Positions 51,001 to 57,000 of a DNA stretch of 64,000 nucleotides are shown one piece after another. Positions within the stretch are counted from its first letter, which is position 1, and every line of letters begins with the position of its first letter. Position numbers: made by a program. Source of the DNA: a virus (lineage: Duplodnaviria; Heunggongvirae; Uroviricota; Caudoviricetes); IMG/VR virus record IMGVR_UViG_2713896799_000023. One strand, given 5' to 3'.

Positions 51001-54000
51001 CAGCTGGTTTAAACCGCGCTCCTGAGCAAAGTTTGGGGTGATTTTCAGCATGACGCCCCCTTGCCATTCGCCGGGATGATATCGATCCCAGCATCGCTAT
51101 AACTGGTCAGTTTCTTTGGCATTCGAAGCAACACAAAGCCTTCAGTGCCACGACGTGCCAATTCACGCAATTTCATGACTGAGCGGGGTCGCGGAGAGCT
51201 ACGATCGATCTCGATAGCCACACTCCCACCAGTTTTTGCTGTTGCGAGAATATCAACACGGAAATTTCTGCCATCGATTCTTACTGTGACATTGCTTGCC
51301 ACATGCATCCCCTGTGACTCAAGGATCGTTACAACATCAGCCAGAAAGCTGTAACGCTCCTCTGTTCTCAGTGGTACAGTGCTCAGTGTACGGATCAGTG
51401 CCGATTTGGTTGCTGCCGACATAGTTTATCACTCAATAGTTAGCTCGATAATCATTTCACCAGAAACTATCGCGCGCTTATACAGTGATCTACCTAACCT
51501 ATGTACCTGCCTTCTGGCCTAGGCCAAGGGATACAGGCCTTACCAACGACTCCACCCCCTTACCCCCTCCTCGCTTCCTTTCAGGAAATTAGTTGCACTT
51601 GAAATTATCTCTAGCGCAACTAACCGCCATCATGGTGTCGGGGGAAACTTCCGTACCGCTACTGGCGAAAGCATCCAGCCACGGCTGGCTCTCGCGTACT
51701 TCTGGACATACACCCGTAACCGGGTGTTGGCGCTCCGTCTTGCCCTGTTGCCCTTCCTGAACGATACAGGCTCCTTGTCCCACTCTTCCTGGTACACTCT
51801 CGCGTACTCTGCTGCAATTTTTACCCGGGTGGTCGGGTCTAGCTGTAACAATTGCTCCTGTATCCAGTCCCGATCAGCATCACAGTACTGCTCGGGCATA
51901 ACCGTTTTGATTTGCCTGTTCACTCACACCTCCGATGGGCTGTGTGTCCAGGATTAATCATCGCCTCTTACGAACGCAGGGAACGGACGAACCTCTTCCG
52001 CCTCAACTGTGCCGTCATCAAAGGTTTTGACGTATATTTCTCGTCCGACGAGAAGCGCTTTACTGATTGCACTCTGCGCCACGCCAAAGTCCTTAGCGGC
52101 TTTCTTTTGGCCGAACCTGTATACGTAATCAGCCAGGGTCTCTTTTTTCATCGCCATAACTGACTCCTTCAAAATGCCCATATCATTACGCACAGTTATT
52201 AAAATGTCAACACCGCAGATATTTCATTACATATAACCAAAGGTGATATGGTATGAACATGAAAAAGAAACCGTTAACCCCTGAGCAACTGGAAGACGCC
52301 AAGCGTCTGAAAAGTATTTTTAACGCTAAAAAGAAAGAGTTAGGCCTGTCGCAGGAATCATTAGCCTATGAATTAGGTGTTACCCAAAGCGCTGTTAATC
52401 AGCTAATGGCTGGCATCAACGCCATAAATGCCAGCCACGCAGCACAGCTTGCTAAGATACTGAATGTAAAGGTCGGAGATTTCAGTCCCAGCCTGGCAAA
52501 ATCTATTGCAGAAATGGCGCTCGCAATTGAAGAGCCATTAACTCGTGTCCCCGCTTACGAATATCCGTTACTCTCCTGCGTACAAGCTGGCGCATTCTCA
52601 ATGGATGATATTTCGTACACCGCAAAAGATGCGATTAAATGGATCTCCACCACCACAAAAGCCAGTGACAGGTCGTTCTGGCTGGAGGTCAAGGGGCATT
52701 CAATGACCGCACCGCAGGGTGGTAAACCCAGCTTCCCTGAAGGTATGCTGATACTCGTTGACCCTGAACGGGAAATCGAGGATGGCGATTTTTGCGTGGC
52801 CCGAATGAACGGCGATGAATTTACCTTCAAACGATTCATTCGTGAGAGCGGTAAAGCGTACCTGGAGCCGCTCAACCCACGATTCGACATGATTGAGTGT
52901 AACGAAAACTGCCAGTTTGTCGGAAAGGTCATCAAATCGCAGTGGAATGATGAGACTTTTGATTGAGCTCACAGAGTGATTTGACATCCTTCACGCCTGA
53001 AGAATGTGGAGGATGTCAAAAGCACGTTGGCATCATCATGCCACGTAAAGAGGATTAGTTATGCTTCAAAAGCTAGACGTCGCAGACAGCGTGCGTCGCG
53101 AGCTGTCTCCCCGTACCGCGCGTAAACACAAAGCAGAGTTCGGCCAGTTCATGACGCCTTCTGGCGTGGCCCGTTTTATGGCCTCCTTGTTTCCACCGAG
53201 CACAATGAAAACTTGCCGTCTACTGGACGCAGGCGCTGGTTTAGGCGCACTGTCTTGCGCCTTCCTCGACCGTTGGCTGGTTGGCGAGTTTGGCTTTGAG
53301 TCTGTCGAGGCAACAGCCTACGAAATCGACAAAAAGCTGTGTGGTCACCTTGCGAAGCACTTAACCGGGTACAGGAGAGTGACGCCCCGCATCATCGAAG
53401 GGGATTATATTGAGCTGGCAACCGCCGAAGGTCTACAGGATCGAGGTTATACCCATGCAATACTTAATCCGCCTTACAAGAAGATCAATAGCCAGTCAGC
53501 CCACCGGCAGGCTCTTCGCACTGTCGGTATCGAGACGGTAAATCTGTATTCCGCCTTTGTTGCACTGGCTGTAGGTGAGGTTGCACCTGGCGGGCAGATA
53601 GTGGCCATAATCCCACGTAGTTTCTGCAACGGACCGTATTACCGTCCGTTCCGTAATTTCATACTTGAGCGGGCAGCAATCCGCCATATTCATTTGTTCG
53701 AATCACGTAGCAAAGCTTTCAGGGATGACGATGTGTTGCAGGAAAATATTATCATCCGCCTGGAGCGTGGAGGCCGTCAGGAGGCTGTTACAGTCACAAC
53801 TTCGACCGATGATAGCTTTTTTGACCTAGTCACCTACGAACACCCATTTGACCAGATTGTGTACCCGGACGATTCGGAGCGGTTTATTCATGTGCCGACC
53901 ACGCTCGAGAAAAGCACCATTGAGTTATCATCTGCCGTACAATGTTCGCTGGCTGATATTGGCGTGAAGGTATCGACCGGACCGATAGTTGATTTCCGAC

Positions 54001-57000
54001 TGAAAGCTCATTTGCGCAGCATGCCAGAAGAAGGAACTGTTCCCCTGATCTACCCGAGCCATTTGAGTATGAGTAGCACTGTCTGGCCTGTGGAAGGTTT
54101 GAAGAAACCCAACGCAATCATGCGCAACGACGAGACAGAAAAGTGGCTTTACCCGAACGGTTTTTATTGTGTGGTGCGTCGTTTCTCGTCGAAGGAGGAA
54201 AAGCGCCGAGTGGTAGCAAGCGTCGTTGATCCTGCTACCTTCAGTGAGTATTCAGTGTTGGGATTTGAAAATCACATGAACGTGTTTCATGAGAACAAAC
54301 ATGGGTTACCCGAGGCGCTGGCCCGTGGCTTGGCCGTGTTCCTGAACACTACCGCAGTGGATAAGTATTTCCGTCGCTTCAACGGGCATACACAGGTCAA
54401 TGCAACCGACCTCAAGATGATTAAGTACCCAAGCCGTGACACTCTGATAGAGCTTGGCAAGTGGGCTATGCAACAAGAAACTCTCACGCAAGAACATATT
54501 GACGCTAAGCTAGGAGCTCTGACTGCATGAACAACCAAAATGATTATATTGAGGCCGCTCAGCAAATTATAGCATCCTTAGGCCTGCCCAGAGCGCAGCA
54601 GAATGAGCGTTCTGCTTTGTGTTTGCTGGCACTCCTGAACCTCACACCGGGAAAAGCATGGGCCGACGCGGAAAATCCGCTTGTGGGCATTACACCAATC
54701 ATGAATTGGGTTCGGGAGCACTACGGCAAGGTCTACGCACCCAATACTCGTGAGACATTCCGCCGCCAGTCTATGCATCAGTTCTGCGCTGCTGGAGTAG
54801 CCCTCTACAATCCGGACAAGCCCGATCGCCCAGTGAACAGCCCGAAGGCTGTTTATCAGATCGAACCTGCTGCTCTGTCCATGCTACGCACTTTCGGCAG
54901 CCCGGCATGGCACGATAGCCTTGCAACCTATTTAGCCGAGCGTGAAACGCTGGTTACCCGCTATGCTAAGGAGCGCGAACAGAATCGTATCCCTGTTGAA
55001 ATTGCTGCGGGCCAGCAAATAACCCTCAGTCCCGGCGAGCACAGCGAACTTATCCGTGCCATAATAGAGGACTTCGCCCCACGTTTTGCTCCGGGTAGCG
55101 TGCTGGTCTATGCTGGCGACACTGGCGAAAAGTGGGGCTACTTCGACGCTCCACTGCTGGCCGGGCTAGGTGTTGATGTGGATTCACACGGTAAAATGCC
55201 AGATGTGGTGCTACATTTTACTGCGAAAAACTGGCTGCTACTGGTTGAGTCTGTCACCAGTCATGGACCGGTTGATGGGAAGCGGCATGCTGAGCTTGCC
55301 AGGCTGTTTGCCGGATCAACAGCCGGACTTGTCTATGTGACCGCTTTTCCAAATCGCTCCATCATGGGGCGATATCTTGGTGAAATCGCATGGGAAACAG
55401 AGGTATGGGTGGCTGATGCACCTTCTCATCTTATTCACTTCAACGGAGTGCGATTTCTTGGCCCCTACTCTACTGAATGAGAACAGGACCAGATAAATAG
55501 CCCGGCCCATGCGCCGGGTTTTTCTTTGCATATCCCCTCCTGTTATCTGCCCCCTTAAAAAATAAATCACTTTAAAAATCAGTTAAGTAATAATTTCTCG
55601 CCCTTAAAAAGCACCAACGGTATTTACATGAAAATCACCGCAAGTTATATTTATTTCAAGCCAGAAACATCGCGCCCTTACACAGGGCTACATAAATCAG
55701 TCGTACGGCGCGACTTAACCCGCCGCAAAATGCTCTTTAACAATCTGGAGCTTTACAGCGTCAATGACCTGTTTAGACCCCTACACGTAAACGTGCTGTA
55801 TCATCGGGTGCGATCCGGTCGATGAGAGAGTATCCCCGCGCGAGAGCGAGAACGGCGTGAGAACGGGCAACACTGGCAGGAAGTTGGCGCTGACCAATAC
55901 AGGGAATGTTTTGGGGTGCAGGCGGCACCGCCAAAGCGTTTCTGAGAAAGAACGGTATTGACTGCGTGTGATGTCGGGGCTATATTTGGCGAACACCTCA
56001 TAAAACGGGTGTCGGGATTGCTACCCCGCTGACAATCGAGGCGATACAGACGCGCCAGCGTCTTTTTTTGTATCGACATACACGCACATCTTATCAATGG
56101 TGGGCTGTATGGGGCCGACTTCGGTCGGGCTGGTTCCCTTGATTGCCAGTTGTAGCAACCCTGTACAGTCCACCGCCAGCGAGCTTGCTACCTCCAGCGG
56201 TGGTTATCAATCACCAATCAAGGAGGCTGCCATTATGGCTACTATCCCAGTCCTTTCTCAACCTGAAATCACCATTTCCAATGGTCGCGCTGTTACTACG
56301 TCCTTTGCCGTTGCCGAATATTTTTGCAAGCGACACGATAACGTATTGCGCGCCATTGCAAATATTGAATGCTCAGAGAAATTTAACGCCCTCAATTTTG
56401 AGGACGTTACCTACACCGACGCCAAAGGCGAACAACGCCCAATGTACCAAATCACCAAAAACGGCTTCGTTTTTCTGGTGATGGGCTTCACCGGCAAAAA
56501 AGCAGCTGCATTCAAGGAAGCCTACATTGCTGAATTCGATCGCATGGAAAAACAACTATGGGAACAGAAACAACTGGCCCTGTCTTCTCCTGCGATGAAT
56601 ATCAATTTCCCTTTGTCGTGGTTTTCAGAGCATCACCCCTACGCCACGATGAACTATGTTGATCGCAAGGTTATCAGCCTTGATGCTTCCGTGCTCTTCG
56701 ATATGCCAAGCCCAACTATGCGCATCCTCAATGAGCTACACAGCAAAGGCTATAACGTTGACGCCGCTGTCGCCGAATTTAACGCCTTCAAGCATCTGAC
56801 GGAAGAAATGCGCCGCACGCTACAGGATATTTCAAGACTGTCAGATCGAAATTCCCGAAAAGGCTTCTCGTTAAGTCTTTAAAGAACAGATCGTTTGACA
56901 ATGCTGCATTAACGGGGATATATTCTGCCTCATGGTGCTCAAAACACCTTAGCAAGTAGCGGTTACCGCGCCCGACAGACATGCGGTTTTTTTGTGTCCA

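Follow-up and report, generated by a model that had tools for sequence, protein, structure and literature searches.

A restriction-modification gene pair downstream of cI in a Shiga-toxin prophage is, by sequence identity, the PstI-like EcoGIII system

The two genes that follow the cI repressor gene in this phage are, by sequence identity, the already characterised EcoGIII restriction-modification system (PstI-like, CTGCAG) of the O104:H4-type Shiga-toxin prophage, and thus form a real system but not a new one. Within the 64,000-nt window, by which we mean the whole stretch of DNA that was analysed, positions 52200-55700 match phage P13374 with 100% nucleotide identity, as they do a further 96 records of Stx phages, and phiON-2011, an Stx2a phage of O104:H4, is also 100% identical across the region. 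Likewise, positions 52967-55600 are 100% identical to the chromosomes of E. coli O104:H4 C227-11 and 2011C-3493, and the region is matched in 145 of 5426 complete E. coli genomes. The encoded endonuclease is 100% identical to the listed C227-11 protein, C22711_2126. There are zero sequence differences from EcoGIII of C227-11 (Fang et al. 2012, Nat Biotechnol 30:1232; REBASE M.EcoGIII, R.EcoGIII). The rare codons published for EcoGIII (AUA15, CCC21 and AGA22 in the endonuclease gene; CUA5 and CCC17 in the methyltransferase gene; PMC6456624) coincide exactly with those in the window. An earlier, sequence-only reading of this DNA had suggested that the pair may be a PstI-like system reported on the Stx2 prophage of O104:H4, and this identity shows that it pointed to the right system, which the literature names EcoGIII. 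The only additions that we make to what is known of EcoGIII are a resolvase relic, the edges of the slot in which the genes lie and the alternative cargo that relatives carry there. We give a probability of roughly 0.9 to the joint account that follows, in which EcoGIII of Oslovirus/Sepvirinae O104:H4-type prophages has the build of a cassette, was captured from a plasmid module, occupies a general slot and is putatively read through from PRM.

ORF calling across the window places cI, the methyltransferase gene (M) and the endonuclease gene (R) on the plus strand, which confirms the earlier claim that the pair lies directly 3' of cI on the same strand. The features of the region are as follows.

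52184-52243, minus strand: operators OR1, OR2 and OR3 with the divergent promoters PR (to cro, minus strand) and PRM (to cI, plus strand); exact match to published operators
52253-52966, plus strand: cI repressor, 237 aa, with HTH_3 (Pfam 8e-10) and the Peptidase_S24 autocleavage domain (9.5e-29)
52980-53020, plus strand: stem-loop of 16 bp with no U tract; phage backbone and left edge of the cargo slot
53017-53056, plus strand: relic of a serine recombinase (resolvase), its last 11 codons; left end of the imported cassette, with a small stem at 53028-53043 inside it
53049-53055, plus strand: Shine-Dalgarno sequence of M, AAGAGGA, 5 nt upstream of the ATG (read from the sequence)
53061-54530, plus strand: M.EcoGIII, gamma-class N6-adenine DNA methyltransferase yielding CTGC(m6A)G, 489 aa; assigned from motifs, PADLOC and C227-11 identity, with the specificity taken from the literature
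54527-55480, plus strand: R.EcoGIII, BsuBI/PstI-family type IIP endonuclease, 317 aa; assigned from Pfam, SdaI similarity and the conserved PD226/E241
55499-55528, plus strand: intrinsic terminator (terminator scan), closing the cI-side transcription unit; right edge of the cargo slot

The repressor gene is called cI in the annotations of both P13374 and phiON-2011. The footprinted operators of the BAA2326 (O104:H4) phage match the window exactly at 52184-52199, 52206-52222 and 52226-52243, and a consensus scan finds a PR-like site, TTGACA-17-AATGAT, at 52210-52182. When OL operators were sought in 55480-56150 by likeness to OR1-3, the best matches carried 5-7 mismatches and therefore none is convincing; the absence of OL has likewise been reported in a published paper on the O104:H4 phage. 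The interval given in the sequence-only reading starts at 52967, the first base past the cI stop codon, and its end, 55524, falls within the T tract of the terminator. The stop codon of M and the start codon of R share the sequence ATGA at 54527-54530, and this 4-nt overlap implies translational coupling, as had been proposed. The strong terminator proposed to follow the pair is also present: its stem at 55499-55520 comprises 8 bp, 6 of them G-C pairs, is followed by TTTCTTTG and has a hairpin energy of -14.5 kcal/mol. No open reading frame separates cI from M or M from R, so there is no candidate for a small controller (C) gene, and cI is the only helix-turn-helix protein in the cI-M-R unit.

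The methyltransferase carries GQFMTP at residue 28, DAGAGLG at residue 56 and NPPY at residue 136, which is the X, I, IV motif order of the gamma class to which the sequence-only reading had assigned it. The rest of the protein lies C-terminal to these motifs, and this long part is presumed to be the target-recognition domain. In PADLOC, the full length of M matches MTase_II (5e-248) and R matches REase_II (1.6e-168). The endonuclease consists of an N-terminal winged-helix domain (BsuBI_PstI_RE_N, PF17728, 1.2e-54, residues 7-143) and a C-terminal PD-(D/E)XK nuclease domain (BsuBI_PstI_RE, PF06616, 4.6e-61, residues 155-307), each matching the complete profile. SdaI, to our knowledge the sole solved structure in the BsuBI/PstI family (CCTGCAGG; PDB 2IXS), has the same two-domain layout and is 42% identical to R over its full length (E = 1.2e-77); it recognises 8 bp, unlike EcoGIII. 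Since the best 120 matches of a protein homology search were near-identical E. coli copies only, family diversity was taken from a representative search. Across 28 diverse family members including SdaI, P225 and D226 of R are invariant and E241 is found in at least 90%; SdaI D233 and E248 align with R D226 and E241. The catalytic acidic residues are thus in place; a lack of catalytic residues had been named as a way to refute the endonuclease assignment. For the third catalytic residue, the column of SdaI K251 holds T244 in R and varies across the family alignment, and is therefore not informative for R; the catalytic lysine is reported to have migrated in this subfamily (PMC2441816).

The prototypes PstI (Providencia stuartii) and BsuBI (Bacillus subtilis) have the Pfam two-domain architecture of R, their methyltransferases are likewise gamma-class with NPPY, and they share the CTGCAG specificity with EcoGIII according to the literature. 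The PstI genes are divergently transcribed. EcoGIII differs from these prototypes in that its genes are phage-borne and follow one another in the order M-R, overlapping by 4 nt and with no promoter at the junction; of 80 related loci, drawn from many phyla, 79 show this tandem order.

The function of EcoGIII has been published. According to the passages of PMC6602927 that cite Fang 2012, EcoGIII both methylates CTGCAG and cuts at it, gives protection from lambda-like phages and changes the expression of ~1,900 genes, and its deletion also affects growth. The product of the R gene is biochemically active (PMC3893438). In an O145 lysogen, methylation was found at 98.8% of CTGCAG sites, versus 0% in a strain without the genes (PMC3893438), and in O111 lysogens it reached 100% of sites. 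The methylated lysogens carry copies of 99-100% protein identity to those in the window, and these published methylomes supply the m6A check on which the sequence-only reading had proposed to rely. Transfer of pESBL is restricted ~10^4-fold by EcoGIII (PMC7736820). As the literature shows for the identical sequence, M.EcoGIII marks the CTGCAG adenines of host and prophage DNA alike, in both strands, and R.EcoGIII, a PstI isoschizomer, cuts incoming unmarked DNA, such that a lysogen restricts other phages and conjugative plasmids. The system is already known to matter, in that it shapes the methylome and transcriptome of outbreak strains and limits phage and plasmid entry. The window contains 12 CTGCAG sites versus 15-41 expected, depending on the model, a mild deficit that is not decisive, and no site lies inside cI, M or R.

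The M-R cassette extends from 53020 to 55488 and has no recognisable promoter. Its closest relatives are resolvase-M-R modules of plasmids, with 84-85% nucleotide identity, and the nucleotide homology to plasmids begins at 53020. The plasmid cassette begins 9 nt past the resolvase gene in all 15 matches listed. In the phage, the relic peptide KHVGIIMPRKED, followed by a stop codon, can be compared with KHVGVITPRQ and stop, which ends the resolvase of plasmid pKAM376_4. Because the 3' end of a resolvase gene is retained, the phage probably acquired its cassette from a resolvase-M-R module such as plasmids and genomic islands carry. The resolvase-M-R modules of IncP-type and other mobilizable plasmids have the ATGA overlap and the promoterless build in common with the phage cassette, and GAGGA of the M Shine-Dalgarno sequence is also kept in them. 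They differ in having a resolvase upstream, whereas the phage has cI as the upstream autoregulated gene together with a terminator that belongs to the phage backbone and is missing from the plasmid cassettes. The small stem within the relic shows two double changes, both from a single lineage. A BsuBI/PstI restriction-modification pair also lies beside res in SGI1-related elements (PMC9035990).

The interval into which the cassette fits is exchangeable. Other genes lie between cI and the terminator in STEC1585, G6/7, FHI_NMBU_10, strain 48 and O111:H- 110512, all of which have the same or a near-identical cI and the same terminator, in keeping with the earlier reading of the pair as cargo. STEC1585 combines a 99% identical cI and the same terminator (2 differences over 55502-55540) with a gene for a 245-aa unknown protein, which makes it reasonable to consider this gene as a candidate defence gene not yet described. 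The other contents of the slot in related prophages are hicAB, a Panacea-domain pair and a decayed restriction-modification system with a truncated R; the deletion in G6/7 took M plus most of R, and truncated copies occur in some commensal strains. The hairpin at the left edge has an energy of -22 kcal/mol (-41.8 kcal/mol, z = -3.9, for the whole cI-M spacer), and STEC1585 and G6/7, where the cargo is other or decayed, have a homologous hairpin after cI. In a covariation test of this hairpin, the variants were uncompensated changes or affected the stem top and the loop, which indicates conservation only, without covariation support. The hairpin may stabilise the transcript, direct its processing or terminate it in part. 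We suggest that the interval from hairpin to terminator would serve as a general slot for accessory defence or addiction genes in this phage group. A more far-reaching proposal, to which we give slightly less than an even chance, is that it is a dedicated capture site of the Stx-phage lineage in which promoterless defence or addiction cassettes land and become tied to PRM, with cI playing the part taken elsewhere by a C protein or a resolvase, holding expression back until lysogeny sets in and turning it off upon induction, and with the conserved hairpin setting the ratio of cI to cargo.

In lambda, rexAB lies between cI and the terminator and is read from PRM, and in 933W the stk gene presumably adjoins cI. 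Like EcoGIII, lambda rexA-rexB and 933W stk are accessory anti-phage genes beside cI that are expressed in the lysogen; Stk is expressed by the prophage and excludes HK97. Rex and Stk work through abortive infection or exclusion, which the infecting phage sets off, whereas EcoGIII cuts unmodified DNA directly and marks the host genome. The adjacency to cI that we observe upholds the claim of a rexAB-equivalent position, a position in place of rexAB that had already been noted (Chakraborty et al. 2018), with the rexAB comparison made in a paper on the same phage (PMC5977221).

From the arrangement of the genes we infer that cI, M and R are likely co-transcribed from PRM; a literature search found no transcript map of cI-M-R in lysogens. 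In favour are the lack of a promoter-like site ahead of M, the Shine-Dalgarno sequence of M, the overlap by which R starts, the terminator past R, the cI activation of PRM, the full methylation of lysogens and the position of the plasmid cassette right behind a resolvase gene. The cassette would then be read in the lysogen by read-through from PRM, as is rexAB in lambda, with expression beginning only as lysogeny is established and stopping on induction, and M would be made before R, such that a new host would be protected during establishment. Alternatively, M and R could be driven by their own promoter, located either in the spacer ahead of M or in the 3' portion of cI, independently of the lysogenic switch, with the post-cI hairpin ending the cI transcript. 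We consider this unlikely, and several observations bear on it. The 16-bp hairpin falls exactly between cI and M, and in the hicAB-bearing relatives the hairpin after cI has a U tract and resembles a true terminator; that of the window has no such tract. PRM of the O104:H4 phage is cI-activated and weak, yielding ~18 repressor molecules per cell (PMC5977221), yet ~2,400-2,900 genomic sites are fully methylated, which could point to an extra promoter missed by our scan. That simple scan of the plus strand from 52253 to 53060, between PRM and M, found no sigma-70-like promoter matching the consensus at 9/12 or better. A weak match read from the sequence, TTGGCA-17-GAGGAT (8/12), lies at 53027-53055, but a transcript starting from it would lose the Shine-Dalgarno sequence of M. 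On the plasmids, the distance from the resolvase stop codon to M is only 9 nt, so in that setting the cassette lacks its own promoter. If the link to PRM is true, restriction strength and methyltransferase supply would track the repressor level, which bears on prophage spread and stability. The context that is added to EcoGIII comprises a probable resolvase-linked origin, an exchangeable slot by the repressor gene and expression probably tied to the hair-trigger switch of the Stx prophage.

A separate question is what the system is selected for. Type II restriction-modification systems behave as addiction modules (Kobayashi and colleagues), and the main selected role of EcoGIII could be addiction, in which a hair-trigger prophage is stabilised through post-segregational killing, or epigenetic control of host genes, with phage defence secondary. 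The toxin-antitoxin-type modules in the slot of relatives (hicAB and the Panacea-domain protein with its partner) speak for such a role, as do the reports, cited above, of altered expression and growth upon deletion, and in G6/7 most of R went together with M, which fits a lethal effect of losing M alone. However, restriction of lambda-like phages and of plasmid transfer is what has been documented, and the roles are not mutually exclusive; we hold the primacy of addiction or epigenetic control to be possible but doubtful. Far less probable still is that the pair has decayed or lost its activity, or that M acts on RNA rather than DNA. Such a reading could draw on weak secondary matches of M to Pfam RrnaAD (1.2e-3) and NCBIfam ksgA (2.9e-4), on the report of an rRNA methyltransferase in this phage type (PMC10810198) and on the truncated commensal copies. 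Both of the secondary matches are far below cut-offs, however, neither open reading frame is truncated and the motifs of both are intact, CTGCAG is methylated by near-identical copies and cut by the product of the identical R gene, so that the published methylomes and restriction assays refute this reading. As to the reported 'prophage-encoded rRNA methyltransferase' of PA8-type phages, M was considered as a candidate and rejected, since that enzyme is the MT-A70 protein gp5, encoded elsewhere, towards the opposite end of the phage.

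The sequence-only reading held that a restriction-modification (R-M) pair lies downstream of cI and ends in a terminator. The ORFs, domain matches and terminator found at these positions confirm that observation:

51954-52193, divergent from cI: cro
52253-52966, + strand: cI-type repressor with HTH_3 and Peptidase_S24 domains
94 nt, + strand: spacer between cI and M, with no ORF listed
53061-54530, + strand: M, methyltransferase ORF of 489 aa
54527-55480, + strand: R, endonuclease ORF of 317 aa, whose ATG overlaps the M stop codon as ATGA
55499-55520: stem of an intrinsic terminator 3' of R (8 bp, 6 G-C pairs, then a T tract; -14.5 kcal/mol)

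M shows the gamma-class order of motifs, with GQFMTP at residue 28, DAGAGLG at 56, NPPY at 136 and a long C-terminal remainder, and over its entire length it matches a PADLOC profile for type II methyltransferases (5e-248). A good Shine-Dalgarno sequence, AAGAGGA, stands 5 nt 5' of its ATG. For R, the two Pfam domains of BsuBI/PstI endonucleases are each matched at full length (1.2e-54 and 4.6e-61), and its identity to SdaI, a family member with a crystal structure (PDB 2IXS), is 42% (E = 1.2e-77).

Over 52200-55700 the window shares 100% identity with Escherichia phage P13374, phiON-2011 and further Stx2a phages of O104:H4; this region is present in 98 phage records, all from Stx-converting or Shigella phages. 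Matches to 52967-55600 were found in 145 of 5426 complete E. coli genomes, chromosomal every time, and those to C227-11 and 2011C-3493 are 100% identical. Since a tblastn search with R in 50,697 phage records returned the same 98 records only, each with at least 95% identity, the family is confined to one lineage within that collection. The rare-codon positions tabulated for EcoGIII (PMC6456624) are exactly those in the window. The pair is the EcoGIII system already described by Fang et al. 2012. The sequence-only reading had suggested that it might be the PstI-like (CTGCAG) system of the O104:H4 Stx2 prophage, and the 100% nucleotide identity and the name in the literature bear this out. The interpretation was correct and the finding is real.

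According to PMC6602927, which cites Fang et al. 2012, EcoGIII is a type II system resembling PstI and is carried by the Stx phage of C227-11; it both methylates and cuts CTGCAG, protects against lambda-like phages and, when deleted, alters the expression of ~1,900 genes. The R product is biochemically active, and 98.8% of CTGCAG sites are methylated in an O145 lysogen compared with 0% in a sister strain without the genes (PMC3893438); in O111 lysogens the figure is 100% (PMC6602927). Cloned EcoGIII restricts pESBL plasmid transfer ~10^4-fold, and a modified A prevents cutting (PMC4288162, PMC7736820).

To this published activity we added an alignment in which R stands beside SdaI and 26 diverse representatives, the latter taken from a search of 1.84 billion proteins. 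All the aligned sequences share P225 and D226, and at least 90% of them share E241; D226 and E241 correspond to D233 and E248 of SdaI. An endonuclease without catalytic residues had been named as grounds for doubt. R instead retains PD226 and E241, in agreement with its published activity, and from these data together the enzyme is clearly functional. At the position of SdaI K251, R has T244; this column varies across the family, which fits the published description of a migrated Lys in the SdaI subfamily (PMC2441816). R253 is invariant in the alignment and may be a candidate replacement for that Lys.

At 52184-52243 the window carries exact copies of the OR1-3 operators footprinted in published work on this phage. 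Repressor bound at OR2 activates PRM, the promoter of cI, and OR3 mediates its repression; PRM is weak, with ~18 repressor molecules per cell, and the cI mRNA has no Shine-Dalgarno sequence (PMC5977221). The same paper states that the BsuBI R-M system stands where lambda has rexA-rexB and that OL and N are not recognisable. Therefore, the rexAB-equivalent position proposed from the sequence holds, and the analogy is already in print for this phage. The placement of EcoGIII next to cI was pointed out by Chakraborty et al. 2018, and PST2 phages of O157:H7 have the same arrangement (PMC4587872).

We place the probability that M and R are co-transcribed with cI at roughly 0.6 to 0.7. Our literature search found no transcript map covering cI, M and R, so this is a point that we infer. 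It is favored by the lack of a sigma-70-like site on the + strand between PRM and M, by the Shine-Dalgarno sequence of M and the terminator 3' of R, and by published methylomes in which M is clearly expressed in lysogens. However, a 16-bp hairpin without a U tract (52980-53020; -22 kcal/mol) lies between cI and M, immediately 3' of cI, and a weak PRM stands in contrast to a fully methylated genome. This inverted repeat carries TTGACA on both strands, is also found in STEC1585, and in G6/7 forms a perfect 19-bp stem with a tetraloop (-37 kcal/mol); folding of the whole spacer gives z = -3.9. A small stem (53028-53043; TGGCAT/ATGCCA) lies just 5' of the M Shine-Dalgarno sequence. Relative to the plasmid version, CGGCGT/ACGCCG, its pairing is kept through two double changes in a single lineage, with 91.7% of cells paired overall.

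In the proposed mechanism, PRM would transcribe the pair, M would be translated first and R would be translationally coupled to it. The literature on identical genes shows that in lysogens M methylates CTGC(A)G across the genome and that R cuts unmodified sites, so that phages and plasmids are restricted. The M-first order, the coupling and the rare codons of R (positions 15, 21 and 22) could protect the host during establishment; induction would end M-R expression, and progeny phage DNA would leave the cell methylated. Addiction and epigenetic roles are plausible co-functions. The window contains 12 CTGCAG sites, which all fall within 21795-49158 and include a group of four within 27730-28363; cI, M, R and the early region 49159-64000 are free of them. 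Across the whole window, GCCGGC occurs 0 times (~20 expected) and GGCGCC 3 times (~16 expected).

Related prophages have a common backbone of helicase, cro, cI and Rha, and they differ in the interval between cI and the terminator:

STEC1585, cI identical at 709/714 nt, homologous hairpin and same terminator: a 245-aa gene
G6/7, cI ~97% identical: no annotated M gene, R reduced to its last 100 codons
FHI_NMBU_10 and strain 48, cI 95-96% identical over the aligned part: a 56-aa ORF and a convergent hicAB pair
O111:H- 110512, nucleotide alignment of cI limited to its C-terminal part (from nt 303): an M-R pair of 95.7% identity, then a Panacea-domain gene and its partner of 126 aa

G1/2 keeps only the 3' end of R, and FHI_NMBU_10 and strain 48 have a hairpin with a U tract 3' of cI. 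In the related loci L005 (4836-5710), L006 (4534-5408) and L007 (6608-7458), the occupants are either hicAB with the 56-aa ORF or the Panacea-domain protein with its partner. This direct comparative support suggests that the interval is a slot in which accessory genes for defence and addiction are exchanged, which gives the rexAB analogy its substance; the defence-cargo reading is supported by the same backbone and terminator enclosing different contents. The STEC1585 gene (4250-4987 of its locus, L002; NZ_CP129252 3232234-3232971) belongs to phrog_6191, where its function is unassigned. Its ORF has no Pfam or PADLOC match, and it is a candidate prophage defence gene, undescribed so far.

Plasmid M-R cassettes from Aeromonas, Pseudomonas, Citrobacter, Morganella and other genera are 84-85% identical in nucleotide sequence to the phage pair, and most of these plasmids are mobilizable or conjugative. 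The homology covers 53020-55488 only, leaving out the post-cI hairpin and the terminator, and a recombinase gene underlies the left end of the match in 15/15 plasmids among the matches listed. In pKAM376_4, 9 nt separate the end of the resolvase from M, and the window retains a relic of the last resolvase codons (KHVGIIMPRKED then stop, versus KHVGVITPRQ then stop). We also surveyed 80 genome loci from many phyla with M homologues (63-88% amino-acid identity); R lies immediately 3' of M on the same strand in 79. Seven of the nine closest relatives (84-88%) are resolvase-linked, with an intact resolvase ending just 5' of M and 88-100% identical to that of pKAM376_4. Given the homology limits, the relic and these relatives, the phage cassette appears to be an M-R unit without its own promoter, acquired from a res-M-R module. 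SGI1-related islands likewise carry a BsuBI/PstI R-M pair beside res (PMC9035990), and many family members are M::R fusions of ~840 aa (PADLOC PDLC03359, phrog_1639). The resolvase relic, the slot edges and the alternative cargo are new but incremental details.

The stretch 3' of the R-M pair is called ~1 kb of non-coding DNA in the literature. It and the adjoining genes contain the following, the Rfam matches being above gathering score:

55958-55986: promoter-like site
55993-56068: isrK (Rfam)
56048-56063: terminator-like site
56093-56180: C4 antisense RNA (Rfam)
57016-57099: sRNA-Xcc1 (Rfam)

The Rfam matches lie just upstream of the Rha-family (56097-56882) and ORF6N/AntB (57138-57812) genes or overlap their starts, which suggests a P1/P7-like antisense-controlled antirepressor module. 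The two proteins have a near-identical C-terminal segment of ~85 aa (…PLSWFS..HPYATMNYVDRKVISLDASVLFDMPSPTMRILNELHSKGYNVDAAVAEFNAFKHLTEEMRR…), a likeness that is a ~250 bp direct repeat in the DNA.

The toxin region, 44574-46490, looks typical of Stx2 phages:

44574-44833: AsxR and STnc100 sRNAs
45189-46148, - strand: 319-aa ORF, probably stx2A
46239-46490: three tRNA genes (Arg-tct, Arg-tcg, Met-cat) upstream of that ORF

An ALIL pseudoknot, a frameshift element of IS3-family transposases, lies at 817-933 on the - strand between ORFs 1-888 and 1524-2336 and points to an IS element at the left end of the window.
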